From NCBI GenBank assembly GCA_964429995.1, contig CAYSDY010000005.1, positions 1-20,829 on the forward strand: DNA of 20,829 nt, read 5' to 3'. Under the pieces are notes generated by a model that was given only the letters and a program-made list of their open reading frames with translations, ran no database searches and was not told where the DNA came from. The first letter of the stretch is position 1. Every line of letters starts with the position of its first letter. Made by a program: the position numbers and the translations under genes. This DNA is from an uncultured Methanosarcinales archaeon (GTDB taxonomy: Archaea; Nanobdellota; Nanobdellia; Woesearchaeales; UBA583). Shown here in pieces: positions 667 through 20,413 of the stretch.

Positions 667-1623
667 ATGAAATGTGAAAACAAGGCATCAACAGTTATAG
701 AAAACATAAGCATAGAAGTAACAAGAAGTTTTATAGATTGTGCTTATTCAGATTATCTTTTAGGTTGTGAGGCTTTTTATATTGTAACACCACATAATAC
801 GTTAATAGACACATTACACGGAATTGAGTTGCAGACCAATTTTTCTTCAACAACTATGAATCATACGAATGGTAAAGCTCATTGTGAGGCTTTAGAACAG
901 GCAGGTCATTCAGACTGGAGACTACCAACATCAACAGAATTACTTATGTCTATTGTAAACATCGCTCCAAACGGTGCTGGAATAACAAATTTATTTAAAA
1001 GTGAACTATTTACAAGTATAGCAACCGGACAATATGTATGGAGTGATAGTTTTTACAGAACCTATACTACAAGACCATTAACACATCAGCCATCAAGACT
1101 TCTTCAAATACTTTCAGAAACAACATTATTATATTATGTAATGTGCGTAAGAGATTATGATACAGATAATGATTTTTTAAAAACACAAAAATATGTTTAT
1201 AACTCAGGTTTAGGGCAAAAAAGAAATGTATCCGATTTTATTTTAAATGGATGTGGATCTGGAACAATACTTGATAATCTTACAAAACGTTGCTGGCAAC
1301 AAAGTCTTTCAGGCGTTGAGATGGAGTGGTTGACCGCTAAAAATTATTGTGAAAATTTAGAATTAGGTAATCATAGTGATTGGGAATTGCCAGATTTAAA
1401 AGAATTAGCCACACTCTTAGGCTATTCTTCAGAGACAATACAAACAATAGTTACATCCTATGGTTTTTCAAATATTCCTAATGGCTATTTGTATTCAAAT
1501 AAGGAATATTATGGAGGCACAAATAATGTTTATTACGCATGTTTTAGAAATGCAAGACCTTACTATTTTGCCAAAACAGAAACCACATGGCGTCATGCTT
1601 TTTGTGTAAGAAGAGATTTTTAA
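667..1623 (+). CDS. Secreted Cys-rich protein with two tandem DUF1566 (Lcl C-terminal-type) domains; coding probably extends upstream to 478 or 85
   Basis: Two copies of the family signature: AHCEALEQAGHSDWRLPTSTELLMSIV ... YVMCVRD, and MEWLTAKNYCENLELGNHSDWELPDLKELATLL ... HAFCVRR. Ten Cys residues. Confidence 0.75.
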   Translation: MKCENKASTVIENISIEVTRSFIDCAYSDYLLGCEAFYIVTPHNTLIDTLHGIELQTNFSSTTMNHTNGKAHCEALEQAGHSDWRLPTSTELLMSIVNIAPNGAGITNLFKSELFTSIATGQYVWSDSFYRTYTTRPLTHQPSRLLQILSETTLLYYVMCVRDYDTDNDFLKTQKYVYNSGLGQKRNVSDFILNGCGSGTILDNLTKRCWQQSLSGVEMEWLTAKNYCENLELGNHSDWELPDLKELATLLGYSSETIQTIVTSYGFSNIPNGYLYSNKEYYGGTNNVYYACFRNARPYYFAKTETTWRHAFCVRRDF

Positions 1624-1670
1624 AACAATTTTATGGAAAAATTTATATTAACCATAAAATCTTAATACTT

Positions 1671-2012
1671 ATGAAATACTATGTTGTAACATTTATTATA
1701 CTTAACTTTGTAATGATATTGTATATGCTATCATCTTTTAGAAAAAAAGTTCCGTTAATATTTGAATTATCTTTTATATTACTATATGCACTAAACATGA
1801 TTATTGTAATATTTCCAAGAGTTGTTGAGATACTTCATTTTTACTTTGGTATATATAACATACTAGTATCTATTTTGTTTATATTCATATTCATATTGTA
1901 CATATTAGTTTACCTTCTTTTTGTTCACATAGAACGGCAAAGAAAAGATATAACAAAACTTGTAACAGAATTAGCACTAGAAAACAAGCAAAAGGATGAT
2001 TCAAAAAAATAA
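1671..2012 (+). CDS. Small 4-TM membrane protein, DUF2304-like
   Basis: Starting at the internal ATG 1671 (MKYYVVTFIIL...) avoids the 37-nt overlap of the track ORF (1587) with the upstream gene. Four hydrophobic helices are followed by a charged tail (ERQRKDITKLVTELALENKQK), as in DUF2304 proteins that accompany glycosyltransferases. Confidence 0.55.
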   Translation: MKYYVVTFIILNFVMILYMLSSFRKKVPLIFELSFILLYALNMIIVIFPRVVEILHFYFGIYNILVSILFIFIFILYILVYLLFVHIERQRKDITKLVTELALENKQKDDSKK

Positions 2013-7978: not shown

Positions 7979-8626
7979 ATGATAAATATGTCTCTTGAAA
8001 AAAGAATAGATGAGCTTTTTAGTGTTATGGATTCATTTAGTAACATGCATAATGAGAATTTACCATTCGATCTTGCAATGTTATCTATGATGCCATCATC
8101 AGATAAAGAAAAAAAATATTGTAAGCAAATTTATGATGATATAGCATTATTTTATGATAAAAGAGTCAAAGATATTGATTTTTTAGAAAAAAAAGTTAAT
8201 CACAAACCAGATTGTTCTAGGATAGTTATAAATGCTTTATATGGCTTTAGTCTTGGTTCTGTAATTTTTCCATTTGAAAAGAGTTATTTGTTGTTTACAG
8301 CAGGTATAGGTTTATTATTAACAGCAAGTGATGAATTTTTAGGTAATGGTTCATATGATTTTGAAAAAACATTCATGTATTCTTTAAGTGGAAGTTTCAT
8401 AGGAGGTTACATTGGTGATTCTATAACCATGGGTGTTGGTTGTGCTATTGGTTTTGCAATAGGTTTATATTCTGGTATTAAAAAAAAAAGATTAGAAGAA
8501 AAACAAATGGCATCATTTATTGGGAATAATCATAAAGAATCAATTAATATTCTTAACGCTTATTACGATTCATTAAAAAAAGAGTTTATTTCATCTATTA
8601 AAGAAAGGTACGATGTAAAATTTTAA
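7979..8626 (+). CDS. Hypothetical membrane protein with a glycine-zipper-like C-terminal half
   Basis: 215-aa ORF. GSFIGGYIGDSITMGVGCAIGFAIGLYSG is a small-xxx-small-rich hydrophobic segment. A CATATAAAT box lies ~32 nt upstream. Confidence 0.55.
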   Translation: MINMSLEKRIDELFSVMDSFSNMHNENLPFDLAMLSMMPSSDKEKKYCKQIYDDIALFYDKRVKDIDFLEKKVNHKPDCSRIVINALYGFSLGSVIFPFEKSYLLFTAGIGLLLTASDEFLGNGSYDFEKTFMYSLSGSFIGGYIGDSITMGVGCAIGFAIGLYSGIKKKRLEEKQMASFIGNNHKESINILNAYYDSLKKEFISSIKERYDVKF

Positions 8627-8747
8627 ACAAGCATTAAATTTTTTTATACATATAGTTTGAAAAACTTATGATTTTATGATGCAAAAGTTTAAACAGGTAA
8701 ATCTTATTAAAGATAGATTTAAAATAAAAAGTTTATATTAAAGAATT

Positions 8748-9479
8748 ATGAGTAATATTTTAGTAATTCCGGCAAGACTTGAATCTGTAAGGTTTAAGAA
8801 TAAATTAATAGAAAAAGTTAATGGAAAAACAATAATAGAAATTGTTTATGAAAGAGTTAAAGATTCTTTATGTATTGATGATGTAATAATAGCAACAGAT
8901 TCAGAAATCATAAAAGATATAATGCAATCAGTTGGTGCTAATGTTGTAATGACTCCTAAAGATTGCAAAAATGGCACAGAACGAATAGGTTATGCCCTAA
9001 AAAGTATTGGATCAAAACATGATATAGTAGTAAACATACAGGCAGATGAACCAATGGTTGATTTAGAAATCATAGATCTTTTAGTAAAAAGTTTTGATGA
9101 TAATACAGATATGGTAACACTAAAAAGAGAAATAACAAAAGACATAGATAACCCTAATTTTGTTAAAGTTGTAACTGATAAAAATAATAATGCTATGTAT
9201 TTTTCAAGATCAAAAATTCCATACAACAGAGATAATGACACAAATGTAAAATATTATAAGCATTTAGGATTCTATGCTTACAGACAAAGTTTCTTACAAA
9301 AATATTTGCAAATGCAAAGTACAGTTCTTGAGCTTTCTGAAAAACTAGAACAGTTAAGAATATTGGAAAATGGTTATAAGATTAAAGTGATAGAAACCGA
9401 CAGATTAACAATAGATATAAATACAAAAGAAGATCTAGAACATTATAAATCATATATAGGTGAAAATAAAAATGTTTAG
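8748..9479 (+). CDS. kdsB: 3-deoxy-manno-octulosonate cytidylyltransferase (CMP-Kdo synthetase, KdsB/KpsU family)
   Basis: ILVIPARLESVRFKNKLIEKVNGKTII, VNIQADEPMV and LEQLRILENGYKIKV parallel the E. coli KdsB segments IIPARYASTRLPGKPL, VNVQGDEPMI and LEQLRVLWYGEKIHV (recalled from memory). Confidence 0.85.
   Translation: MSNILVIPARLESVRFKNKLIEKVNGKTIIEIVYERVKDSLCIDDVIIATDSEIIKDIMQSVGANVVMTPKDCKNGTERIGYALKSIGSKHDIVVNIQADEPMVDLEIIDLLVKSFDDNTDMVTLKREITKDIDNPNFVKVVTDKNNNAMYFSRSKIPYNRDNDTNVKYYKHLGFYAYRQSFLQKYLQMQSTVLELSEKLEQLRILENGYKIKVIETDRLTIDINTKEDLEHYKSYIGENKNV
9458..9463 (+). promoter_or_regulatory. Shine-Dalgarno-like site for the internal operon gene kdsD
   Basis: AGGTGA lies 8 nt upstream of ATG 9472, inside the 3' end of kdsB. 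Confidence 0.4.
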
Positions 9480-10440
9480 TCCAAAAGATATCAAAGAATA
9501 CATACAAGAAACAAGAGAGTCATTAAAATATCTTGAAGATAACATAGATGAAAATTACATAAAAGCATACAATTTATTAAAAGAAGTAAAAGGTAACATA
9601 ATTTTTACAGGTCTTGGCAAATCAGGTCATATAGCACAAAAAGCATCTGCAAGTTATACAAGTACAGGAAATCCATCCTTATTTCTAAATCCAGTAGATG
9701 CTCTTCATGGTGATCTTGGTGTAATAAAAAAAGATGATTTGGTTATACTTATATCAAAAAGTGGGAATACGCAAGAGGTAGTTGAGTTAGCAAGACATAT
9801 TCATAAAATGAACATTAAGGCAATAGCAATAACAAATACCAAAGATTGTTTGTTAAATAAATATGCTGATGTTGGAATTAATATGTATGTAAAAAAAGAA
9901 TTATGCATCCATAACCTAGCACCAACAACAAGCACAACTCATACACTCATAATACTTGATATATTTATGGTCCTTTTAATGAGAAAAAAAGAATTTAAAA
10001 AGGAAAATTTTGCATTGTATCATCCTAAAGGGACTCTGGGCAAACAATTACTCTTAACAGCAGGTGAGTTAATAACAGATCCAGTATATTATGCAAAGAA
10101 GACTGCAGATTTTACAGAAATACTTGAAATTGCATCAAAAAAATCAAAAGGAATAATTCCAATAGTTGAAAACGATAAAATTATAGGAATAATATCAGAT
10201 GGTGATATAAGAAGAATAATAAGAAAATATAAAAAAGACGTTTTTGATGTAAAAATTGAGCAGGTAATGACAAGTCTTAACATAAAAACAGTTGTTAAAT
10301 CAGAACTTGCAATTTGTGCATTAAAAATAATGACAGAAAATCATATAACAGCACTTCCTGTTCTTGATGAAGAAGGAAAACTTGCCGGTATAATCAACAT
10401 ACATGACATACTCAATGCAGGATTAAGGATTGATATGTAA
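9472..10440 (+). CDS. kdsD: Arabinose-5-phosphate isomerase (KdsD/KpsF family; SIS domain + 2 CBS domains)
   Basis: IIFTGLGKSGHIAQKASASYTSTGNPSLFLNPVDALHGDLGV...ISKSGNTQEV parallels E. coli KdsD. The C-terminal CBS pair ends in ITALPVLDEEGKLAGIINIHDIL. The track start 9460 is GTG. I prefer ATG 9472 because of its SD-like site; it overlaps kdsB by 8 nt (ATGTTTAG). Confidence 0.88.
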   Translation: MFSPKDIKEYIQETRESLKYLEDNIDENYIKAYNLLKEVKGNIIFTGLGKSGHIAQKASASYTSTGNPSLFLNPVDALHGDLGVIKKDDLVILISKSGNTQEVVELARHIHKMNIKAIAITNTKDCLLNKYADVGINMYVKKELCIHNLAPTTSTTHTLIILDIFMVLLMRKKEFKKENFALYHPKGTLGKQLLLTAGELITDPVYYAKKTADFTEILEIASKKSKGIIPIVENDKIIGIISDGDIRRIIRKYKKDVFDVKIEQVMTSLNIKTVVKSELAICALKIMTENHITALPVLDEEGKLAGIINIHDILNAGLRIDM

Positions 10441-10457
10441 AATACATGTGCTAAGAT

Positions 10458-10465
10458 TTATAAAT
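10458..10465 (+). promoter_or_regulatory. TATA-box-like element for the KpsS-like gene
   Basis: TTTATAAA centred ~26 nt upstream of ATG 10487. Confidence 0.45.
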
Positions 10466-10486
10466 TTAGATTAAGCCATAACAAGT

Positions 10487-11776
10487 ATGAAGCATAAAAT
10501 AATACTTGTTAACTGTCCTTGTAATAAATTTGCAGATAAAATGCAAAACTTCTTTTTAGACAAAAAAAAGCACTTTGATTTTGAAACAATAAATTTAAAT
10601 GATATACAAGAAAAAAAAAACAATCTAGACGATTTCCTTATATCAAGAATGATATCTTTTGAGCTGACAAAAAGTGCAGTATACAGATATAATTTTGGTC
10701 TCTTATTTAATTATAAAAGAATATTCTCAATAGCTAACAGATCTTCAGAGTTCTGTACAAAAAAAATAGAGCAGGCGGATCTTATACTAATTTTTGAAGC
10801 AAAACATCTCTTATCCCAGATATTTATAGAGTTATGCAGGTTACACAAAAAAGAGTGCTTTATAATTTCAAAAACAATACAAAACGAAGTAAATCTTTGT
10901 AGAATAATAACAAAAGAAGGTTTAGAGATTGAAGTAAGTTTTGAAAACATTTTAAATAACAACCAAGATATAAATGCAATTTTAAAAGACACACAGGATG
11001 TAAAATACAATGATATAAAAAAAACAGACAATTTCATAGAGAATAAGAAAGGTATGATAACACGACTAAAAGAACAAATGAAGTATTCTGGAATATTCTA
11101 TGGTTTGTTAAACTCTTTTAAATCATCTTTAATGTTTAAGATTAGCAATTACAGAAAAAACAAGTACGGAAAGTTCATTGAAATAGATAAAAACAAAAAA
11201 TATGTAACACTATTTTTACAGACAACATACGATAGTCACAATCTTTTAAGCAAGATAACTTATGATCAAATAATACAAAAACTAATAGATGAAACAGACC
11301 ATCAGATAATAATAAAAGAACATCCAGAGCAACATTACGAATACAAGATAGATGAAAAATTAAAAAAACACAAAAGAGTCACATGGATATCCAAATATGA
11401 TAGAATAGATTTTTTAGGTCTACTTTTAAATTCAGAATTTAATGTTGTAATAAATTCTACATGCGGAATAGAATCGGTATATCTTGATAAACCCACATTT
11501 GTTTTTGACAATGCTTTCTACTACAATTATACATATGCATCATACGATTACAATAATATAACATTTAAAGAATATATTAAAAGAAAAGAAGATTTAGAAA
11601 AAGAATATTCATTAAAAAGATTAAATTACAGAAAAGGTTATTATAAGTATTTTATATCACAAAATGGAACACAGGATTACATATTTAATTTTTTTTCAAA
11701 CTGCAATAATTTATATTCATTAGTTTTAAAATCAAAAAATAAAACGCTTTTTGACATAGCATCCAAAACTTTTTAA
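10487..11776 (+). CDS. Capsule_synth-family protein (KpsS/KpsC-like), putative beta-Kdo transferase
   Basis: YVTLFLQTTYDSHNLL (Q245-x3-D249), IIIKEHPEQ (H279-P280) and NVVINSTCGIESVYLDKPTFVFDNAFY match my recollection of the conserved core of KpsS/KpsC (LQvxxDsqi, KxHP, NSTvGleAl..gkPv..lG.a.Y). The gene sits directly after kdsB-kdsD. Confidence 0.65.
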   Translation: MKHKIILVNCPCNKFADKMQNFFLDKKKHFDFETINLNDIQEKKNNLDDFLISRMISFELTKSAVYRYNFGLLFNYKRIFSIANRSSEFCTKKIEQADLILIFEAKHLLSQIFIELCRLHKKECFIISKTIQNEVNLCRIITKEGLEIEVSFENILNNNQDINAILKDTQDVKYNDIKKTDNFIENKKGMITRLKEQMKYSGIFYGLLNSFKSSLMFKISNYRKNKYGKFIEIDKNKKYVTLFLQTTYDSHNLLSKITYDQIIQKLIDETDHQIIIKEHPEQHYEYKIDEKLKKHKRVTWISKYDRIDFLGLLLNSEFNVVINSTCGIESVYLDKPTFVFDNAFYYNYTYASYDYNNITFKEYIKRKEDLEKEYSLKRLNYRKGYYKYFISQNGTQDYIFNFFSNCNNLYSLVLKSKNKTLFDIASKTF

Positions 11777-11801
11777 AAATATAAAGTTTTTAAAAAAGTA
11801 T

Positions 11802-12947
11802 ATGAAAAACATTCTAGTTATTCCTCATAGTTTTAGTAACAAGATTAAAATAAGAGAAGTTGAAATAGCAAAACTGTTAAGGAGTACAGAAAATAATGTA
11901 TACTGTATCAGTTTTGGAAGCAATCATGAACTTGATAATTTGTTTAACAAATTAAAATATCAATTAAGCAGTGTTTTTAAGCAAATATCTCTAACAGAAA
12001 AAGACCAAATAAAATACATAGATATACCATACATTTTCCGTCCAATATCACTTGCAAGAAAATTTAATTCTGCGATAATAAAAAAAATAGCAATCAAATA
12101 TAAAATAGATATAATAATAAATTCATCTTTTGGTCAAGTATCTCTTATACCTCTTAAAAATCATAATGTAACAAAAATATATGATATGGTTGATTTTATT
12201 TCAGAAAATTCACTAAGCAAATATATAAAAGAAGAATTATCTGTTTATGATAAATATATTTCAAGTTCAAATATGTTAACACAATTTATAAAAAAAAACA
12301 TAAATGATAATAATAAAAAACCAATACTATATCTTCCAAATTTTGCTGACCTAAAATCTATACAGGATGTTTTAAAATCAGATGTTGATAAGCTTAAATG
12401 CGAATTATGTTTAAAAAAAACAGATTTTACAATATGTTATATAGGTAATCACTATGATTGGGGAGGATCAGAGTTACTGATAAAAGCATTTACAATGTTT
12501 AACAAAAAACATTTAGATTCAAAACTTTTAATAGTAGGTCCAGGTCCTGAAATTTCAAGACTTAAATCACAATATTGCAATAATAAAAGTATAATATTTA
12601 CAGGTCCAATAGAACCATCAAAAGTCAAATTTTATTTCAATATGACAGATATAGGAGTTCTTCCGTTTCAAAAGATAACACTTACAGATAATGCACTTCC
12701 AATTAAGGTACTTGAATACACAGCAGCAAATAAAAACATACTTGCAACAGAATTAAATGAATTAAAGACACATAATTTTCCTAATGTAGATTTTGTTAAG
12801 AATAATGTAAAAGCATGGGAGAAGGCATTAACAGATGCATATAAAAAAAGAAAAGATTTAAAACTAAAAGATTATAAAAATGTTGTACAGGAATACAGTA
12901 GCGATAAGATCAAAGTTAAAATATTAGAATACGTAAAAAATGATTAA
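11802..12947 (+). CDS. Glycosyltransferase, GT-B fold, group 1 (GT4-like)
   Basis: The C-terminal half WGGSELLIKAFTMFNKKHLDSKLLIVGPGPE...IIFTGPIE...DIGVLPF...LPIKVLEYTAANKNILAT fits the Glycos_transf_1 pattern, including the E-x7-E-like region. Confidence 0.75.
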   Translation: MKNILVIPHSFSNKIKIREVEIAKLLRSTENNVYCISFGSNHELDNLFNKLKYQLSSVFKQISLTEKDQIKYIDIPYIFRPISLARKFNSAIIKKIAIKYKIDIIINSSFGQVSLIPLKNHNVTKIYDMVDFISENSLSKYIKEELSVYDKYISSSNMLTQFIKKNINDNNKKPILYLPNFADLKSIQDVLKSDVDKLKCELCLKKTDFTICYIGNHYDWGGSELLIKAFTMFNKKHLDSKLLIVGPGPEISRLKSQYCNNKSIIFTGPIEPSKVKFYFNMTDIGVLPFQKITLTDNALPIKVLEYTAANKNILATELNELKTHNFPNVDFVKNNVKAWEKALTDAYKKRKDLKLKDYKNVVQEYSSDKIKVKILEYVKND

Positions 12948-14661
12948 TATTATAAAATACATTTTTAGAAAACAGATGGTTAAAAGTGATGAATTTCATC
13001 TTAATGCATCTTTAAAATGGTTAGAAAGTAATCACATAAAAAATAATGGTTTTGCAAAAAAATATAATTTTTTAACAGGTATTGATAAAAGTTATCCAGA
13101 AACTACAGGTTATATAATATCATCTCTAATAAATTATTCATTAACATATAAAACCAATAAATATGATTCAATAATTAATGAAAGTGTAAGATGGCTTATA
13201 AGTATTCAGAATAAAGATGGCTCTTTTAATGATACTTCAAATACCCCTCAGGTTTTTGATACAGGTCAGATAATTCTAGGTTTAACTTGTGCATACAACT
13301 ATCTTAACAAGCCAAAAAAAATATATGATTCAATAGATAGGGCGTGTAATTTTCTTATAAGAGTTCAGTCTTCTGATGGTTCATTTCACAAGTTCTCATA
13401 TAATAAAATAAAGCATACATATTATTCAAGAGTTGCATGGGCACTATTAGAAGCATATAAAATCACAAAAAAAGAAGCATACAAAATTTCAGCCATAAAA
13501 AATCTTGATTGGGTTTTAAGCATGCAAGAGGATAACGGTTATTTTAAATGCATGAGTTTTGATAAAAAACAATATCCATATCTTCATACAATGATTTATG
13601 TCCTTGAAGGTCTTTTAGAATCTTATAAAATAACAAAAGAATCAAAATATAAGTTTGCTGTTATAAAAACAGTTTCAGTACTGCTTGAAATATCAAAAAA
13701 AAGAGATTTTATTTTAAGATCACAATATAAAAAAGATTTTAGTGTTGCAAACTCACAAAAATGCATTCCAGGTCTTATACAATTTGCAGGTCTTTGTGTT
13801 GATCTTTATGATTACGAAAAAGATGAAAAATACATAACAGAGGCAAAAAAAATATTGGCATACGTAAAATCAAAACAGATATTGGATAATACTTCTAAAA
13901 AAGTATATGGTGGTTTTTGTGCAAGCATTCCTTTTTACGGCAGATATGGAAGATTTGAAATAGTAAACTGGAACAATAAATTTTTCATTGATTTAATTTT
14001 AAAAATAAAAAACTATAATATTGAAGAAAACGAATTAGATGTATATATTTCAGAAAGGTTCAATTTTTTTAGTAAAAAAAGATATTCAGAAGAAAACATA
14101 GAACAAAGGGATGAAAAAATCTTGCATATGACAAAACAGTACATAAAAGGAAAAGTGCTTGATTTAGGATGCGGAAAGGGAAAGATAGTAAAATACCTAA
14201 AAAACAAAGGTGTTGATATAATAGGTGTTGACCCAGCCGTAGAATATCTAAAAAATGCAGAATTGAACCTTTTAAAAGCAGATGTTTATGATACAAAACT
14301 TAAAGCAAATAGTGTTGATACTATACTTCTTATAGAAGTTTTACAGCATGTTCCATACATAGACAAGGCATTTTTGCACATAAAAAATATAATAAAAGAT
14401 GGTGGTCATATACTTGTTGTTGAAAGAAACAAAATATCTATAATGCAGATATTAAAGCCATTTATGGAAAAATTAGATCTTTGGATGTATCCTTCTGATA
14501 GCCCATTTTTTGAAAGAAGCATGTATAAAAAACAATGGATAGAACTATTTGCAAAATTAGGTCCAACAGTTTTTGTAAGAAAAATTAGTGGTGATGGAAA
14601 GATAGCAAAACATCTTAATAAATATTATGTGTTTGTAATAAAAGTAGACAAAAGCAAATAA
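12940..14661 (+). CDS. Fusion protein: N-terminal prenyltransferase/terpene-cyclase-like alpha/alpha-toroid repeats + C-terminal class I SAM-dependent methyltransferase
   Basis: The N-terminal part has repeats spaced ~50 aa apart: IQNKDGSFND, VQSSDGSFHKF, MQEDNGYFKC (Q-x2-DG-x-F type). The C-terminal part has VLDLGCGKGKIVKYLKNKGVDIIGVDPA (motif I, nt 14155-14180), VDTILLIEVLQHV and IKDGGHILVVE. The ATG overlaps the upstream stop by 8 nt (ATGATTAA). Confidence 0.7.
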   Translation: MINIIKYIFRKQMVKSDEFHLNASLKWLESNHIKNNGFAKKYNFLTGIDKSYPETTGYIISSLINYSLTYKTNKYDSIINESVRWLISIQNKDGSFNDTSNTPQVFDTGQIILGLTCAYNYLNKPKKIYDSIDRACNFLIRVQSSDGSFHKFSYNKIKHTYYSRVAWALLEAYKITKKEAYKISAIKNLDWVLSMQEDNGYFKCMSFDKKQYPYLHTMIYVLEGLLESYKITKESKYKFAVIKTVSVLLEISKKRDFILRSQYKKDFSVANSQKCIPGLIQFAGLCVDLYDYEKDEKYITEAKKILAYVKSKQILDNTSKKVYGGFCASIPFYGRYGRFEIVNWNNKFFIDLILKIKNYNIEENELDVYISERFNFFSKKRYSEENIEQRDEKILHMTKQYIKGKVLDLGCGKGKIVKYLKNKGVDIIGVDPAVEYLKNAELNLLKADVYDTKLKANSVDTILLIEVLQHVPYIDKAFLHIKNIIKDGGHILVVERNKISIMQILKPFMEKLDLWMYPSDSPFFERSMYKKQWIELFAKLGPTVFVRKISGDGKIAKHLNKYYVFVIKVDKSK

Positions 14662-14775
14662 AATAATTCTAATTCAATTTTGTGCAAACACTACAATTTG
14701 AGATAAAATTCATACAAATTTAGTAAATATTTAATTGATAGCTTACTTACGAAAAACTCCATAATTTAAAAAGGG

Positions 14776-14873
14776 AACTATGTAAACCATTACAATATAG
14801 ATGTTTTACAACGCTATTTCCGAAAGAAGCTTGCGAAAAACAATGTTTTTTTAAAATTCTCTATATTTTTTTA
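14776..14873. repeat. Intergenic repeat element, copy B (pairs with 4209..4295)
   Basis: Same orientation and ~86% identity to copy A by manual alignment. It ends 5 nt before the stop of the minus-strand flippase gene. An AGCTTACTTACGAAAAAC copy lies ~88 nt upstream of the internal AGCTTGCGAAAAAC. Confidence 0.8.
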
Positions 14874-14878
14874 AAAAA

Positions 14879-16396
14879 CTATTTGTCATTTTTCTTAACT
14901 TTAATATTAAACAGTGTTTTTATCAATTTAATGTCATAAACTTTTAATATAAATCCAATAATAAGATATATTAAGAATGCAGGGATAAAAATAATAATCA
15001 TCCTTAACAATATATTAAATGGTGGAACAAAAAAATTAGAAAATAGCAAAATTAATGTAAACACAATGTTGGCAAAGATAATACTTTTAATATTCTTTAG
15101 TTTTAATTTAAGAGCATTTCTATTAAGTTCAACATAGCTTAATAAAAATATTGCAAATGAAGATATAAATGTTGCAAATGCGATTCCATTGAGTCCAAAG
15201 ATAAGAACGAATAAAATATTTAGCAAAAGGTTCATTATGCCTCCCAAAATAAGTACAATATTCCTTTCCTTTATTTTATTTAAACCAGCAAGTACAGAAT
15301 AATTCATATTAAAAAAAACCTGTATCAGTGCGGATGATGATAATATTGCAATAAGCAAAGTACTATGAAAATATTTAGGATCATATAACACAGCAACAAT
15401 ATCTTTTGCAAAAATACTAAAAAATACAACACATGGAAGGGTTACATAAAAAAGAAAGGAATACACGTTGCTAACAATGTTTTCAAGTTCATTTTTACAA
15501 GATTCAAAAAGTTTACTAGTTAATGGAAATATCAACCTTTGAATTGGTGCAAACAATACAACTATTACATTTGCTATAGACATAGATATTTCATAAAGTC
15601 CAACATCTTCAAAACCAAGAAAAAATGTAATAACCTGAGTATCTATTTTTTGAAGAAAAAGGATAGCACCAATGCTTAGTGCAGAATAAAAGGCATAATT
15701 AAATATTTGGTTAAAAAAAGATTTTTCAAAGAAAAAAGTACCTTTTGCAAATACCTCACTAAACGAGAAAAAAATAAGAAAAATGTAAAGCAAGGTCATA
15801 AATGCAAATACAATTCCCCAAATAACTCCTATTATATATATAGATGTTCCATCAAAAAAATAAATATAAAAAAAAGATAATGCAAATATAAGTACAAGAT
15901 ACAAAAGAGTATATAAAAGATTCAAAAACATATTAAGTTTTACAAGGAAAAAATTGTGAAAAGGTTTTGAAACATTAAGAAATAAAAAATATACTGCAAG
16001 TACATAAAGCATTTTAACTGATGCTAAATCTTTAAAATAATATTTTGCTATATATCCTGAAAAAACAAATATCAAAATTCCAAAAATCAAAGAAGATATT
16101 ATTTGAATTATTACACTATAATAAAGCAATGATTTTAGTTTTGAATATTCTTTTTTCTCATAAAATTTTGGTCCAAAATAAGAAAAAGTATTAGAAAAAC
16201 CAATATCGCACAATATAGAAAGTATAGAATAAAATCCAATAATAGAATAAAACATTCCAAATTCAGATAACGAAAAGTTTTTAGTATAAAGAATTCTGAT
16301 AAAATAACCAAAAGGAGCTGTTATATATGTTAAAAGATATATGTAAAAACTATTCTTTGCAAAGTTCTTATACAGCTTATCAGAACCATCATTCAT
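14879..16396 (-). CDS. MOP-superfamily polysaccharide/oligosaccharide flippase (Wzx/AglR-like)
   Basis: 505 aa, hydrophobic throughout (about 12-14 predicted helices by eye). The N-terminus LYKNFAKNSFYIYLLTYITAPFGYFIRILYTKNFSLSEFGMFYSII is typical of Polysacc_synt proteins. It lies in a glycan locus next to aglB. Confidence 0.7.
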   Translation of the reverse strand: MNDGSDKLYKNFAKNSFYIYLLTYITAPFGYFIRILYTKNFSLSEFGMFYSIIGFYSILSILCDIGFSNTFSYFGPKFYEKKEYSKLKSLLYYSVIIQIISSLIFGILIFVFSGYIAKYYFKDLASVKMLYVLAVYFLFLNVSKPFHNFFLVKLNMFLNLLYTLLYLVLIFALSFFYIYFFDGTSIYIIGVIWGIVFAFMTLLYIFLIFFSFSEVFAKGTFFFEKSFFNQIFNYAFYSALSIGAILFLQKIDTQVITFFLGFEDVGLYEISMSIANVIVVLFAPIQRLIFPLTSKLFESCKNELENIVSNVYSFLFYVTLPCVVFFSIFAKDIVAVLYDPKYFHSTLLIAILSSSALIQVFFNMNYSVLAGLNKIKERNIVLILGGIMNLLLNILFVLIFGLNGIAFATFISSFAIFLLSYVELNRNALKLKLKNIKSIIFANIVFTLILLFSNFFVPPFNILLRMIIIFIPAFLIYLIIGFILKVYDIKLIKTLFNIKVKKNDK

Positions 16397-16418
16397 AAAA
16401 TTAAAATAAATACATTCA

Positions 16419-16427
16419 TTTATATTA
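16419..16427 (-). promoter_or_regulatory. TATA-box-like element for the flippase gene
   Basis: The minus strand reads TAATATAAA, centred ~27 nt upstream of the start at 16396. Confidence 0.4.
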
Positions 16428-16512
16428 CTTGCTTTTTATTTATTAATGAAAACCTTCTTTCAACGATGTTTTATGCTTAAATATTAGTAATTTTAGTAAA
16501 TAAACAAAAATA

Positions 16513-16520
16513 TTTATAAA
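16513..16520 (+). promoter_or_regulatory. TATA-box-like element for aglB
   Basis: TTTATAAA centred ~27 nt upstream of ATG 16543. Confidence 0.45.
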
Positions 16521-16542
16521 TGATATTTTAAAAAATGTTAGT

Positions 16543-19503
16543 ATGAAGAAGAAAAGCAACAGTAAGACTTCAAAAGAAGAACAAAAAGTAGCTGAAAAGT
16601 CATTTGTCAGTAAAATAATGGATAGTAAATTTGTAAAGAACATATTTCCTAAAGTACTTCCATTAATATTGATTTTTTTTGTAATGTTTTTTGCATTTTA
16701 CATAAGAAGTGCTCCTGATAAACTTAGAGGAATAGAAGAGATCTCAAGACAGGAGATATACAATTATGTAGGAAATATAATAAACTATAAAATATCTTTA
16801 GATTATCCAAACCTTAATCAGATATATCAATCAGAACTATACGAAAAAGAATTTCAAAATGCAATTAGCAATGGTTATGTTGATATTAATGGCGAAAGAA
16901 TAATGATAGAAGAAGAAGTTCAAAAAAGAGTTCAGCTTCACAAAGAATCATTAACAGATGATAACGGTCAGGTTTATTTAAATGCAATAGATCCATACCA
17001 TTTTTATCGTTTAGGTGAAATATATCAGGAAAATGGTTATATGGGAACATCAATTGTAACAGATGAACAAGGCAATCAAAAACCAATGATAGATTACAAA
17101 CTAGCTCCTAAAGGATTTGAAGGAAGCTATACTCCTGATTTACAGACATGGTTGTTTGCAACAATATTTAGATTTAAAGGATATGATGAAAACACTCCTG
17201 TTGGATACAAAACAGCATCAGTATATTATATTCCTGTTATAATAATTCTTCTAAGCATAATACCAATGTTTCTTATAATAAGAAAATTTTCATCAAACAT
17301 ATTTGCCTTTTTTGGAAGTCTTTTATGTGTAAGTATTGGAACAGTTACATCAAGAACAGTTGCAGGTTTTACAGACACAGATGGATATAATATACTATTT
17401 CCATTGCTTATACTTTTATTTTTAATATATTCATTATCAACAGAAAAGAGGATATTCAAAATAATTTACGCATTTTTAGCTTCATTGTTTACAACTATGT
17501 ACATATGGGCATGGCCAAGTGGATGGTTCATGTACATGTTTGTGATAATATCTATAATTGCATACTATTTTTTGATAATATTGTATAAAAAAATCATTTT
17601 AAAATCAATATTAAAAGATGATATTTCAAAGTTTAAAAAAACAATACTTTCAGATTCAATTATAGCATTGACATATGCAGTATTATCTTTTGTATTAACT
17701 TACATATTTTTAGGTTTTAATTTGTTTACACTTGCATATGACGGTTTTAGTGGTTCAATGTCAGATATTGCAACAGTAGGGCAGTCAAATATATGGCCAA
17801 ATGTATACTCATCTGTTGCAGAGTTAAATCCAGCATCATTTGAACAGATACTCTCAACAGTTGGAGGAAGTCTTGTTACAGGAAAAATTGTTCTTGTGAT
17901 TGCCATGTTTGCATTGCTGATGCTTGTGTTTAATGCTTTTAAGGGTGATACAGACAAAAAGAATAAATTGATAGTATTAGCATCAATTATTTGGTTTTTA
18001 ATCATAATTAATTTAAGTTTCTTTGTAAATCTTACAGTAAATAATCCTGAACTTTTCATATTTCTTTTATTTTTACCAATAGGTATTTCACTTTTAATGA
18101 ATATCATATCAGGACACAATAACTTTAAGGTTTTTTTAAGCATTTTATTAGCTTTATGGATGTCAGGAACAATATATATGAGTTTTCATGGAGTAAGATT
18201 CATTCTTTTATTAGCTCCAGCATTTTCAATAGCTTTTGCAATAGGTTTATACTACATTTCATTTTTTATGGTAAACATATTTGGTGGAGAATTTGAAAAC
18301 AGGTTTTCAGGAAGAAAATTAATAGGCCTAATAATAGTTACAATTTTTTTTACAGTATTATTCATTCCTGTTGCACAAACATCTGATAAAATTACAAAAT
18401 CAACATTACCAAATTTTGATGATTCATGGTATAATGCAATGTATAAAATAGAAAACGAAACAAGCAAATCTGCAATCATAACCTCATGGTGGGATTTTGG
18501 TCATTTTTTTGCAGCGATAAGTAAAAGAGGAGTTACATTTGATGGTGGAACACAGACTAATCCAGTATCACATTGGGTTGGAAGATTTCTTCTTGAAAAT
18601 GATGAACATGTTGCAGAAGACATATTAAAAATGCTTGTGTGTTCAAGCAATGATGCATACTACGATTTTTACAAAATGGTAGGAAAAAACGAAGCAGACA
18701 GCATTAAAATACTTCGTATAATAAACAGAACATTTGGACATGAAAGAGAAGAAAAACAAGATATTCTAAAAAATAATGGATATTACGACTTAACAGATGA
18801 TCAAGTAGAAAAAATATTAAACAATCTTGATTGTAAAGATAGCAAAGAAAGTATTGTTATAGCATCAGGTGATATGATTCCTAAAGCAGGAGTTTGGGCT
18901 CATTGGGGTTTATGGGACTTTGAAAAGAAATATGTATACAACAATTATCTTAGAATGTCAAGTAGTGATATTGCACATAACATAGATATAGATAAAGAAA
19001 TTGTTGATAAATATGTTGAAGAATTAAAATCAATAGATATAAGATCCAAAGTTGAAGGAATAAAAAAAGATGATCTTCTAAATTATTGGTTTGCACCTTA
19101 TCCAAGGTATTTAACATCAGATAATCAGTACATGTTCAATTGTCAGGTTGAAGGTAATGAAACAATCTCATGTTTAAACGGAAATCTTAAAATAGATGCA
19201 ATGACAGGCAATATAACAAAAAACAATCTTGCAGAAGGATTTACGGTAAGAAATATATACGTTCCATCAAAAGAAGATAAAGTATTAGAAATAGAACAGG
19301 ATTCAAATGGAAGGGTTGATATGATACTTATGAATACAGCCTCAGGTTTTGCAATAATGTTTGCCGAGCCACCTTTAGCAAACAGTCTTTTTAGTAAGAT
19401 GTATTTTATGAATGGTTCAGGTCTTACAAAATTTGAAAAGTTTATAGATGAAAATGGACTAAACGCACCAAGAATAACAGTTTGGAAGAGTGATTTGAGT
19501 TAA
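16543..19503 (+). CDS. aglB: Archaeal oligosaccharyltransferase, STT3/AglB family
   Basis: 986 aa. A multi-TM N-terminal region carries the acidic loop motifs NAIDPYHFYRL and GFTDTDGYN. The catalytic WWDFG motif is at nt 18487-18501, followed by a soluble C-terminal domain. Confidence 0.9.
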   Translation: MKKKSNSKTSKEEQKVAEKSFVSKIMDSKFVKNIFPKVLPLILIFFVMFFAFYIRSAPDKLRGIEEISRQEIYNYVGNIINYKISLDYPNLNQIYQSELYEKEFQNAISNGYVDINGERIMIEEEVQKRVQLHKESLTDDNGQVYLNAIDPYHFYRLGEIYQENGYMGTSIVTDEQGNQKPMIDYKLAPKGFEGSYTPDLQTWLFATIFRFKGYDENTPVGYKTASVYYIPVIIILLSIIPMFLIIRKFSSNIFAFFGSLLCVSIGTVTSRTVAGFTDTDGYNILFPLLILLFLIYSLSTEKRIFKIIYAFLASLFTTMYIWAWPSGWFMYMFVIISIIAYYFLIILYKKIILKSILKDDISKFKKTILSDSIIALTYAVLSFVLTYIFLGFNLFTLAYDGFSGSMSDIATVGQSNIWPNVYSSVAELNPASFEQILSTVGGSLVTGKIVLVIAMFALLMLVFNAFKGDTDKKNKLIVLASIIWFLIIINLSFFVNLTVNNPELFIFLLFLPIGISLLMNIISGHNNFKVFLSILLALWMSGTIYMSFHGVRFILLLAPAFSIAFAIGLYYISFFMVNIFGGEFENRFSGRKLIGLIIVTIFFTVLFIPVAQTSDKITKSTLPNFDDSWYNAMYKIENETSKSAIITSWWDFGHFFAAISKRGVTFDGGTQTNPVSHWVGRFLLENDEHVAEDILKMLVCSSNDAYYDFYKMVGKNEADSIKILRIINRTFGHEREEKQDILKNNGYYDLTDDQVEKILNNLDCKDSKESIVIASGDMIPKAGVWAHWGLWDFEKKYVYNNYLRMSSSDIAHNIDIDKEIVDKYVEELKSIDIRSKVEGIKKDDLLNYWFAPYPRYLTSDNQYMFNCQVEGNETISCLNGNLKIDAMTGNITKNNLAEGFTVRNIYVPSKEDKVLEIEQDSNGRVDMILMNTASGFAIMFAEPPLANSLFSKMYFMNGSGLTKFEKFIDENGLNAPRITVWKSDLS

Positions 19504-19564: not shown

Positions 19565-20413
19565 ATGTTTAAAGATTTATTGCATAAAAAAGGAATAAGT
19601 TCTGTAGTTCTTGTAAGTATATTGATTGCAGGATCAGTAATGTCATTTTTTGTTCTTTCACAATGGTATACAGACATTCAGTCTAAATTAGAGTTACAGG
19701 CAATGTCTAATAATATACATACGCACCTTGAAATTGAGAAAATTTCAGAAACAAGTATTTACATTTTGAGTAGGTTTAAATTAAATTTAGCACTAAATTA
19801 CATAAAAATAGGTGATAGGATGTGTGTTAATAATTTAATAATAAGTCCAGGAGTTAACAAGATTAACATAAAAGGATGTATTGTAGGTTTACAAAACATG
19901 ACTCCATACGATGTTCAAATAGGAACGAATTTAGGGTTATATTCAGCATATAAAATTTTACGTGATATTCCAGAAAAAGAACTAATAATAAGATACACAA
20001 AATCAGAGTGCAATTCAGAAGATGGATATACAAGGCTTTACGGCGTTGATTCTATAGATAACTCACATGTTGAAATAGATGGTTCAGGAATCTACAATGT
20101 TTGTGCAAAACATGTAAATTATACAATTGGTAATCAGTGTACCAATTCTTTTGCTAATTTATTTTTAATAGCATCACAAAATAATTCACATGTATATACA
20201 GAGACATCACAGGTTCATTCTGCAAGTCCTGATTACTATGATTGGTACAATATATGTTTAAACAGTTTTGAATCAACAGTACATTATCTTTTAAACGAAA
20301 CAGCTGATGAAAGGTATACATGTATTGCAAGCATAAATAAAAATGATATTTACGGTGCATCGATTGCAAGTTGTGATTATTACAAAGACAATTTGTTTGT
20401 ATTTGTTGGATAA
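19565..20413 (+). CDS. Archaeal type IV pilin N-terminal domain protein with a Cys-rich C-terminal extension
   Basis: HKKGISSVVLVSILIAGSVMSFFVL resembles the archaeal pilin N-terminal signature (K/R-G-x-S-P-V-I-hydrophobic). The mature part has 8 Cys. It looks paralogous to the ORF at 85. Confidence 0.7.
   Translation: MFKDLLHKKGISSVVLVSILIAGSVMSFFVLSQWYTDIQSKLELQAMSNNIHTHLEIEKISETSIYILSRFKLNLALNYIKIGDRMCVNNLIISPGVNKINIKGCIVGLQNMTPYDVQIGTNLGLYSAYKILRDIPEKELIIRYTKSECNSEDGYTRLYGVDSIDNSHVEIDGSGIYNVCAKHVNYTIGNQCTNSFANLFLIASQNNSHVYTETSQVHSASPDYYDWYNICLNSFESTVHYLLNETADERYTCIASINKNDIYGASIASCDYYKDNLFVFVG

Follow-up and report, generated by a model that had tools for sequence, protein, structure and literature searches.

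Gene content and organization of the locus

The window analysed here, a stretch of 20,829 nt, belongs to a tiny DPANN-type archaeon with a 1.1-Mb genome (93% complete). It carries a five-gene collinear operon, extending from kdsB to the gene for a toroid::methyltransferase fusion, that converges on wzx, which in turn is divergent from aglB. The features are as follows:

8748-9479, plus strand: kdsB/kpsU-type CMP-Kdo synthetase, 243 aa (NCBIfam and Pfam)
9472-10440, plus strand: KpsF/KdsD-family arabinose-5-phosphate isomerase, 322 aa, SIS and two CBS domains
10487-11776, plus strand: KpsS-like PF05159 Capsule_synth glycosyltransferase (GT), 429 aa (Pfam)
11802-12947, plus strand: GT4-family Glycos_transf_1, the GT1 gene of the locus, 381 aa (Pfam and NCBIfam)
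12940-14661, plus strand: toroid::methyltransferase fusion, 573 aa (Pfam)
14662-14878, no strand: convergent intergenic region between glycan operon and wzx, 217 nt
14879-16396, minus strand: Wzx/MOP-family flippase candidate, Polysacc_synt PF01943, 505 aa
16397-16542, no strand: divergent intergenic region between wzx and aglB, 146 nt
16543-19503, plus strand: AglB oligosaccharyltransferase, STT3 family, 986 aa, WWDFG at 649-653
19565-20413, plus strand: pilin-like protein, 282 aa (sequence inspection)

With the ATG used by the gene callers taken as the start of kdsD, kdsB and kdsD overlap by 8 nt (9472-9479), as do GT1 and the fusion gene (12940-12947), and the remaining gaps within the operon measure 46 and 25 nt. 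Gene calls and coordinates agree with a preliminary description of this DNA, which had reported the tight collinear spacing, the two overlaps and the convergence on a MOP flippase gene paired divergently with aglB; its gene identities are upheld by family profile matches. It had also remarked on the lack of KpsM/T- and KpsE/D-like export genes, and indeed ABC2_membrane (KpsM-type) and Poly_export (KpsD-type) remained unmatched across the entire genome. A simple scan of the 217-nt convergent region gave no convincing terminator, and the 146-nt divergent region presumably holds the promoters for both wzx and aglB.

Integrity of the island

It had been suspected that the kds/kps genes belong to a chimeric assembly, with junctions at 8600-8750 and 14660-14880. 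However, at least six contigs, assembled independently of one another from different samples and as long as 63 kb, show the same gene order, and both suspect junctions are 99.97-100% identical among ENA, JGI and Logan assemblies. The island lies on a single contig, flanked by archaeal housekeeping genes and aglB, and GC, GC3 and codon usage of its genes are typical of the genome. Although the closest KdsB homologues are all bacterial, as might be expected for bacterial contamination fused to archaeal DNA, the matching order in these assemblies and the host-like codon usage speak against a chimera, which is rejected as far as assemblies can show and which we consider next to inconceivable. The full compositional amelioration implies long residence without decay.

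KdsB, KdsD and the missing synthesis steps

KdsB scores 204.9 with TIGR00466 (cut-off 155.2) and 288.7 with NF003952 (cut-off 193), and every significant match in a PDB search is a KdsB enzyme (best E 4.5e-44). The protein retains 38 of 41 highly conserved columns. Within 'TIDINTKEDL', Asn225 replaces the Asp known as Mg-A ligand (PMC3149649, PMC2901514), a Mg-binding residue present at this column in 38/38 aligned homologues and in the solved KdsB structures. Two residues upstream lies Asp223, which is unique to this protein; the equivalence of metal-binding residues between CNS and CKS enzymes is spatial only and not by sequence alignment (PMC2901514). KdsD scores 250.3 with TIGR00393 (cut-off 203.7) and, when aligned with E. 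coli KdsD (2xhz), keeps K50, H79, E102, E143 and H184. The protein closest to it is the KdsD encoded beside aglB in the congener G016 (46% identity, clade support 100/99).

Bacterial relatives show the order kdsB-kdsA-kdsD-kdsC, whereas kdsB and kdsD abut in the archaeal locus. The 'Kdo module' of the preliminary description holds good for the activation, isomerase and transferase genes, but amounts to half a pathway, as neither KdsA nor KdsC was matched in the 93%-complete genome. The genome also gave no match to NeuB, to the KdsA/DAHP-synthase family or to DHDPS/NAL, HpcH or HMGL-like aldolases. Among 19 congeners no KdsA was identified either; eight of them carry PF00793 genes, and the two that were scanned with NCBIfam are AroFGH-type DAHP synthases and were discarded as KdsA candidates. 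Since none of these known synthase families was found, the sugar acid would have to be salvaged, made by an unrecognised synthase or made by one encoded in the unassembled 7%; otherwise, the substrate would be a different one.

The KpsS-like transferase

The product of 10487-11776 is a strongly divergent near-orphan with 17 matches among 1.84 billion representatives, of which all ten scanned are PF05159 proteins; its identity to any other protein stays below 34%, over half of its length. Its own match to PF05159 (28.9 bits, cut-off 20) covers the C-terminal half only. Q244xxxD248 and H279-P280 are conserved, at positions comparable to Q244/H286 in a Neisseria KpsS homologue, and a family profile that includes the protein has KpsC and WbbB as sole PDB matches below E 1e-9 (WbbB structures at about 3e-12). 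These features suggest a single-module protein resembling retaining beta-Kdo-glycosyltransferases, of KpsS-like length. Glu is absent from the aligned catalytic-base position. The nearest relatives, among them a bacterial one (P0015), reside in Wzx/Wzy-dependent loci with pseudaminic/legionaminic-type (Pse/Leg) genes. The pairing with Wzx is therefore unexceptional, and the earlier view of 'Wzx instead of KpsMT' as a special hybrid does not stand.

The GT4 protein and the toroid::methyltransferase fusion

Relatives of the GT4 gene product yield weak GT4 matches, and a GT1 gene directly upstream of a fusion homologue is also found in Thermococcus sp. 9N3. The fusion consists of an (alpha/alpha)6 toroid and a class I SAM methyltransferase. 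In its AF2 model (pLDDT 93.2, pTM 0.92) the toroid resembles sugar epimerases/isomerases and GH88; Foldseek ranks AGE-family epimerases, cellobiose 2-epimerase, mannose isomerase, GH88 and GH76 at the top. The fusion has more than 1300 full-length homologues, most of them from bacteria, and all four that were looked up lie in surface-glycan loci.

Wzx, AglB and conservation in relatives

Wzx, with ~14 hydrophobic segments, is the sole PF01943 protein of the genome and adjoins the sole STT3 protein, AglB, which is 33-49% identical to its congeneric counterparts. The 282-aa pilin-like protein, with a class III signal-like N-terminus (KKG/ISSVVLVSILIAG...) and four N-x-S/T sequons, found no family match in Pfam/NCBIfam profile searches and is a possible AglB substrate. 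A genome search revealed no AglH-type initiating enzyme, and the window contains no Wzy polymerase or chain-length gene.

A search of 40 relatives turned up neither kdsB nor the KpsS-like GT; for kdsB, the 19 congeners gave no match, and weak CTP_transf_3 matches appeared in three further families within the order. Thus, the full linkage is not conserved. What does recur in related MAGs is the layout to which the preliminary description had drawn attention: in the congeners G002, G004 and G017 wzx lies 1-6 kb from aglB, and the two of these that were annotated, G002 and G004, have a GT4/methyltransferase/sugar-modification operon leading into it. In G016 the sister KdsD gene is directly divergent from aglB, with neither kdsB nor a PF05159 GT. 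These observations support a genus-typical form of the locus, in which a variable glycan operon feeds a single Wzx encoded next to a single AglB. At the level of the phylum, 43 of 401 genomes (about 10%) contain PF05159 genes, usually with a CMP-sugar synthetase and NeuB nearby; in 5 of 14 genomes checked they lie within 12-25 kb of aglB, where about 4% per genome is expected.

Proposed pathway and alternative explanations

Taken together, we read the Kdo-type genes as real, long-resident cargo in a variable glycan-assembly operon adjoining wzx and aglB, and propose for them the following pathway, an explanation in which, as a whole, our confidence is evenly balanced. A lipid-linked oligosaccharide would be begun on the cytoplasmic face by a GT2 enzyme encoded elsewhere in the genome, and the KdsB/KpsU-type enzyme would provide a CMP-activated 3-deoxy-2-ulosonic acid, that is Kdo or a close analogue. 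The PF05159 transferase may attach this acid via an Asp248-linked covalent intermediate, as in KpsC and WbbB, while the GT4 protein and the fusion may extend and modify the glycan. Finally, the sole Wzx would flip the product and the sole AglB would most likely move it to surface proteins, e.g. the downstream pilin-like protein. The suggestion that Kdo is part of an N-linked glycan is favoured by the adjoining Wzx and AglB and by the congener layout, but we infer the link to AglB from adjacency, which alone is no proof that AglB uses this glycan. Support for the pathway may be seen in the fusion homologues of a Nitratiruptor PglB locus and of a Thermococcus locus converging on Wzx, in the PF05159 genes found near aglB elsewhere in the phylum and in the precedent of Halorubrum sp. 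PV6 described below; Asn225 of KdsB, the KpsS-like GT without its catalytic-base Glu and the failure to find AglH or a synthase, or kdsB and the GT in relatives, would argue against it.

It is possible, with distinctly lower probability, that the locus is active with a sugar other than Kdo. In that case the KdsB variant (D223-x-N225) and the PF05159 GT would use another CMP-ulosonic acid, and KdsD would have a different role in glycan synthesis of the genus. This would accord with the altered metal site, with a Kdo-8-P synthase found neither in the genome nor in the genus, with the Pse/Leg-type surroundings of the nearest PF05159 relatives, with the pairing of PF05159 genes and NeuB in the phylum and with the solitary KdsD near aglB in G016. 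In addition, Asp223 at the -2 position presumably corresponds to Asp209 in the 'DID' motif of CMP-sialic-acid synthetases. However, KdsB exceeds the KdsB equivalog cut-off and keeps most conserved positions, the lack of NeuB and the other aldolases leaves a different sugar acid without encoded synthesis as well, and arabinose-5-phosphate is not known to have any fate except Kdo-8-P.

We think it unlikely that Wzx flips a glycolipid or lipid-anchored polymer outside AglB, an option already named in the preliminary description. KpsS starts on phosphatidylglycerol, and the KpsS-like GT, given its length and motif positions, might start on archaetidylglycerol; the lack of an AglH-type enzyme would fit as well. 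Against this stand the recurrence in the genus of a glycan operon running into wzx beside aglB, the single flippase and single oligosaccharyltransferase of so small a genome, and a window devoid of Wzy or chain-length genes. Rather improbable, finally, is a non-functional remnant of horizontal transfer that has lost kdsA and kdsC and contributes to no glycan. The gene order of bacterial relatives, the D-to-N change at a catalytic metal ligand and the failure to find kdsB and the KpsS-like GT in the relatives searched could be so explained, but all frames are intact and coupled by overlaps, the composition is ameliorated, KdsB is well conserved, and KdsD has every checked catalytic residue and a sister copy in a congener.

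Comparison with known systems

In the ABC-transporter-dependent group 2 capsule loci of E. coli, kpsF, kpsU and kpsS bring together the same three functions as the archaeal trio: paralogues of the A5P isomerase and of the CMP-Kdo synthetase, and a PF05159 beta-Kdo transferase of the retaining type that has the QxxxD and HP motifs (PMC10148158). These loci contain only kpsF and kpsU for CMP-Kdo, with kdsA and kdsC outside the cluster (PMC13171606); the capsule-dedicated subset relies on housekeeping KdsA and KdsC, neither of which was found in the archaeal host. Moreover, the archaeal locus is without KpsM/T, KpsE/D and KpsC, export presumably occurs through Wzx, and the host has no outer membrane. 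In Raoultella/Klebsiella, WbbB (GT99) caps O-antigen with a terminal beta-Kdo; its covalent Asp-Kdo mechanism (PMC10148158) is plausible for the KpsS-like GT, one possible role of which is to add a single terminal ulosonic acid to a short glycan. WbbB, however, is a multi-domain protein of an ABC-transporter pathway, and chain termination is unsupported by anything at the archaeal locus.

The toroid::methyltransferase homologues of Campylobacterota and Thermococcus are full length and 33-42% identical to the fusion. The Nitratiruptor glycan locus ends in an STT3-type PglB, and the Thermococcus locus (GT4-GT4-GT1-fusion) converges on Wzx like the window's operon; in place of Kdo-type genes, these loci have ones for UDP-ManNAc dehydrogenase and epimerase or for CDP-alcohol transferases. 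Modules of other DPANN archaea and of bacterial Wzx/Wzy loci combine a PF05159-type GT with a CTP_transf_3 synthetase; they form part of glycan islands that often share a contig with aglB. They include NeuB and a NeuA/PseF-type synthetase, whereas the present locus has a KdsB-type synthetase and KpsF/KdsD with no synthase, and its GT is only marginally similar to the DPANN ones (17-20 bits).

In Haloferax volcanii the agl cluster unites AglB with the flippase candidate AglR and the methyltransferase AglP. In Halorubrum sp. PV6 legionaminic-acid genes (LegF, CMP-activated) cluster with aglB, and the sugar is found on the N-glycan (PMC6137143). That sugar is a nonulosonic acid, whereas the present one, with its synthase missing, would be of the 8-carbon Kdo type. 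What archaeal agl clusters and this locus have in common, close to aglB, are genes for GTs, for a methyltransferase, for a flippase candidate of the Wzx family and for activating a sugar acid.

The glycan region is a genuine part of the host genome

The window represents the opening 20.8 kb of a 56-kb contig, and the host genome has a size of 1.10 Mb, a completeness of 93% and a GC content of 27%. Preceded on its 5' side by genes for AspRS, an NFACT protein, HisRS and a thymidylate-kinase-like protein, a seven-gene glycan region extends from 8748 to 19503:

8748-9479 (+), kdsB
9472-10440 (+), KpsF/KdsD
10487-11776 (+), PF05159 'Capsule_synth' glycosyltransferase
11802-12947 (+), GT4-family glycosyltransferase (GT1)
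12940-14661 (+), toroid::methyltransferase fusion
14879-16396 (-), Wzx
16543-19503 (+), AglB

The layout given in the preliminary description, that is two 8-nt overlaps and a wzx gene converging with the operon and diverging from aglB, was verified, with gaps of 217 nt on the convergent and 146 nt on the divergent side. The statement that KpsM/T and KpsE/D export genes are missing also holds: profile searches of genome and window revealed no group 2/3 ABC-transporter capsule exporter (KpsM/KpsT, KpsE/KpsD), and neither PF01061 nor PF02563 was matched in the whole genome or in the window. The worry that the region might be a junction artefact proved unfounded. Independent ENA, JGI and Logan assemblies display identical gene order with 99.97-100% identity over both suspect junctions, which rules out an assembly chimera, and one independently assembled contig with the same island order reaches 63 kb. 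Composition is likewise host-like, as GC, GC3 and codon usage place every island gene inside the bulk of the genome's ORFs. Promoter and terminator scans of this AT-rich archaeal DNA returned nothing informative. Near the 5' end of the window (667-2012, + strand), a DUF2304 four-helix membrane protein is encoded after an Lcl_C-domain protein (318 aa, 6 sequons); DUF2304 genes frequently adjoin GT2 genes in bacteria.

KdsB and KdsD represent half of a Kdo pathway

The designation of the first genes as a Kdo module stood in part. KdsB (243 aa) scores 204.9 against TIGR00466 (cut-off 155.2), and all 13 matches of a PDB search are KdsB enzymes (best E value 4.5e-44). KpsF/KdsD, which is composed of a SIS domain and tandem CBS domains, scores 250.3 against TIGR00393 (cut-off 203.7) and 243 against the E. 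coli KdsD equivalog NF008141, that is under the cut-off of 505 of the latter. Its residues K50, H79, E102, E143 and H184 align with K59, H88, E111, E152 and H193 of E. coli KdsD, which we take to be the catalytic residues. However, only half a pathway is present, as KdsA and KdsC were not found. There is no PF00793 match for KdsA in the 93%-complete genome, and tblastn with two Omnitrophota KdsA queries yielded nothing below E=1. For KdsC, the genome has no TIGR01670 match, and tblastn with KdsC of the nearest bacterial operons was negative. The latter operons, from Omnitrophota, have the order hldE-kdsB-kdsA-kdsD-kdsC-lptC; in the window, kdsB and kdsD overlap.

A KdsA concealed within the genus was considered and, as far as the PF00793 genes were scanned, rejected. 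A PF00793 gene is present in 8 of the 19 congeners, and both genes scanned with NCBIfam encode DAHP synthases, one of them beside a transketolase fragment:

G019:C1:206769-207671, AroFGH-type, next to the transketolase fragment
G017:C36:51050-51949, AroFGH-type
six other congeners, a PF00793 gene each

Alternative sugar-acid synthases were rejected as well, since neither NeuB nor HpcH/HpaI, HMGL-like or DHDPS/NAL-family aldolases were found in the window's 93%-complete genome. Aldolases of the HpcH/HpaI and HMGL-like types occur next to a kdsB-like gene in the phylum genome G275. In that cluster (G275:C17, locus L103, 1094-6167) the kdsB-like gene has as neighbours genes for a HAD phosphatase, for an Fe-S protein, for a pyruvate aldolase of the HpcH/HpaI family and for an HMGL-like::MptE-like fusion, which together may allow a 2-keto-3-deoxy sugar acid to be made independently of KdsA.

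The KdsB of the window deviates at its metal site. Two aspartates that ligate Mg-A are strictly conserved in this family, namely D95 and D219 in A. aeolicus and D98 and D225 in E. coli K-CKS (PMC3149649, PMC2901514). The first is kept as D100 (equivalent to D95), but position 225 (equivalent to D219) is occupied by Asn as compared to Asp in 38 of 38 homologues and in the solved enzymes. The segment concerned (residues 221-227, encoded at 9408-9428) reads T-I-D-I-N-T versus G/S-V-D-T in all 38 aligned homologues, and Asp223, which is unique to the window protein, is located two residues upstream of Asn225. Asp209 of CMP-sialic-acid synthetases presumably occupies that -2 position ('DID' motif) and by analogy, Asp223 may therefore make up for Asn225. 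With D223/N225, the metal site could be shifted or the enzyme impaired. In the kdsB tree, the window sequence stands apart from other DPANN kdsB-like genes; deep nodes are unresolved and a bacterial donor was not found.

The PF05159 protein carries motifs of retaining β-Kdo transferases

The 429-aa glycosyltransferase matches PF05159 with 28.9 bits (cut-off 20; 29.8 bits in the genome search), covering profile positions 133-283 only. Retaining β-Kdo transferases of families GT107 (KpsC/KpsS) and GT99 (WbbB) possess an invariant QxxxD motif providing the Asp nucleophile (D160 in KpsC, D232 in WbbB) and an HP motif, whose His protonates the CMP leaving group (PMC10148158). In the window protein, the first motif reads Q244-T-T-Y-D248 and lines up with the Q...D of KpsC (6mgd) and other PF05159 homologues, and the HP motif is present as K-E-H279-P280: in one alignment (A1) P280 is invariant and H279 nearly so, and in another (A2) both are invariant. 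Q244xxxD248 and H279-P280 are spaced as in KpsC and a KpsS homologue from Neisseria. At the position of the consensus catalytic Glu (KpsC Glu66, 'fExG'), MAFFT places Ser132/Lys133, the closest Glu residues being E123 and E136; the AF2 model (pLDDT 57, N-domain of low confidence) is too poor to locate the catalytic base. Foldseek searches with this low-confidence model ranked WecB epimerases, KpsC and WbbB on top in mixed order (TM 0.2-0.35), providing no discrimination with respect to a modified GT-B fold such as that of KpsC and WbbB. A profile containing the window protein, when compared with the whole PDB, retrieved KpsC and WbbB at E values of 1e-9 to 1e-12 and one other, unrelated chain at 0.33.

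A word-index homologue search matched the protein itself alone, and exhaustive phmmer analysis of 1.84 billion representatives gave 17 matches, with 10 out of 10 scanned belonging to PF05159. Judged by these searches, the transferase is a near-orphan. The closest relatives for which genomic context is available are encoded in Wzx or Wzx/Wzy loci of bacteria; one of these loci has a pseudaminic/legionaminic-type pathway.

The fusion protein (573 aa) is a member of an extensive family of ~580-aa proteins, most of them from bacteria. Matches to the Pfam families Prenyltrans and SQHop_cyclase had suggested the toroid as a dolichol/prenyl-binding module, an idea that was rejected on account of a confident model (pLDDT 93), in which the toroid is similar to sugar epimerases/isomerases of the AGE type and to GH88 and GH76, and not to prenyltransferases. 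Homologues occur in glycan loci. That of Nitratiruptor sp. SB155-2 (AP009178.1, L121, 6053-17761) ends in an STT3-type PglB, and in Thermococcus sp. 9N3 (L123, 4884-15952) a GT1-fusion pair converges on two Wzx genes; in the window, the same pair converges on the single wzx. Genes for CDP-alcohol phosphatidyltransferases are frequent neighbours of the family.

The wzx/aglB layout is typical of the genus, the cargo is not

As in agl-type clusters, an AglB with a WWDxG motif is accompanied by neighbouring glycosyltransferases, modifying enzymes and a candidate flippase of the Wzx family; the genome has one copy each of wzx and aglB. An AglH-type enzyme (PF00953) for initiation on dolichol phosphate was not found in the genome, and four GT2 genes located elsewhere could be AglJ/AglD-like. 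Directly 3' of aglB (19565-20413, + strand), a 282-aa protein is encoded that matched no family; its N-terminus resembles that of pilins (KKG/ISSVVLVSILIAGSVMSFFVL), and with its four N-x-S/T sequons it is a candidate AglB substrate.

As to conservation of the linkage, the picture was mixed. On the one hand, wzx lies 1-6 kb from aglB in the congeners G002, G004 and G017, and in both annotated loci (G002, G004) a co-directional GT4/methyltransferase/sugar-modifying operon runs into wzx. In addition, a KdsD homologue of congener G016 (46% identity), sister to the window KdsD (support 100/99), is encoded directly divergent from aglB. On the other hand, searches of the 19 congeners detected no kdsB, weak matches appearing in three other families of the order, and neither the PF05159 transferase nor the toroid domain was detected in these congeners or, apart from one weak toroid match, in the 21 other families searched. 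True kdsB is rare in the phylum, with 3 of 401 genomes above the cut-off, and the other two copies lie in unrelated clusters. In G016 (C51, L127, 4761-9648), the kdsD gene beside aglB is followed by three genes resembling a split ATP-citrate-lyase/citryl-CoA system (citrate-synthase C-terminal domain; CoA-binding/CoA-ligase; ATP-grasp plus citrate-binding) and then by Acyl_transf_3, all inside the glycan cluster.

Of the 401 phylum genomes, 43 have PF05159 genes, which mostly neighbour genes for a CMP-sugar synthetase and NeuB; in 5 of 14 genomes checked they lie within 12-25 kb of aglB (rough binomial P ~2e-4, with kin not being independent). NeuB, a CTP_transf_3 synthetase and a PF05159-like transferase are encoded no more than a few kb apart in many DPANN genomes (G347:C3, G263:C6, G272:C70, G418:C19, G214:C1 and others). 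This set, often situated on the aglB contig, is a candidate module for nonulosonic-acid glycans that seems to be widespread.

A working, species-specific operon is the most likely interpretation

Taken together, the region most likely represents a functional glycan operon next to aglB, in a variant specific to this species. Its products would attach a Kdo-type sugar acid, activated as the CMP form, to a lipid-linked glycan, which Wzx would flip and AglB would probably transfer. If the module works, the PF05159 protein is predicted to transfer Kdo from CMP-Kdo; its nearest relatives are located in nonulosonic-acid loci. These relatives and the incomplete pathway are consistent with a rival reading in which the substrate is another sugar; the score of KdsB above its family cut-off speaks against it. 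Less likely, the product is a glycolipid bypassing AglB; that no AglH-type enzyme was found favours this explanation, and the single wzx and aglB genes adjoining the operon count against it. Finally, it is improbable that the locus is a stranded, inactive transfer remnant, for which Asn225 of KdsB and the failure to find kdsB and the PF05159 gene in relatives would speak; the host-like composition, the overlapping genes and the G016 KdsD at aglB speak for the working operon.

A more specific version of the working operon strikes us as improbable, namely that N-glycans, e.g. on pilin-like surface proteins, bear Kdo or a methylated Kdo derivative through a capsule-type kpsF/kpsU/kpsS subset combined with Wzx/AglB, the acid being salvaged from nearby Gram-negative bacteria or a host or made by an unrecognised non-orthologous Kdo(-8-P) synthase. 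If true, no archaeal glycoconjugate with Kdo would have been reported before it, and KdsB would operate with its metal site shifted (D223/N225). More generally, a working module would mean that archaeal glycans are capped not only by nonulosonic acids but also by ulosonic acids of the Kdo type, and it would offer a relative of KpsS and WbbB that has a single module and is amenable to study. How an organism lacking KdsA comes by Kdo would then be a question with a bearing on metabolite sharing and surface mimicry in surface-attached symbionts. If inactive, the module would still be a clear example of cargo exchange in glycan operons adjoining aglB in DPANN archaea, and of a subset of capsule-type genes cut off from its housekeeping partners.

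Comparison with known systems

In terms of the E. coli kps system, the trio in the window corresponds to kpsF/kpsU/kpsS, the genes dedicated to the capsule; E. coli supplements them with redundant housekeeping genes, on which they rely (PMC13171606). In contrast to the E. coli kps hosts, no housekeeping KdsA or KdsC was found in the window's genome, which is also without KpsM/T and KpsD-type genes. The literature retrieved holds no report linking DPANN archaea to CMP-Kdo genes, that on archaeal N-glycosylation makes no mention of Kdo, and none of it connects Kdo with glycans of archaea. Archaeal N-glycans are very diverse, but Kdo is not known from them. In Halorubrum, they contain legionaminic acid, and the corresponding genes cluster with aglB (PMC6137143). 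This legionaminic-acid N-glycan is the nearest precedent for the locus described here.
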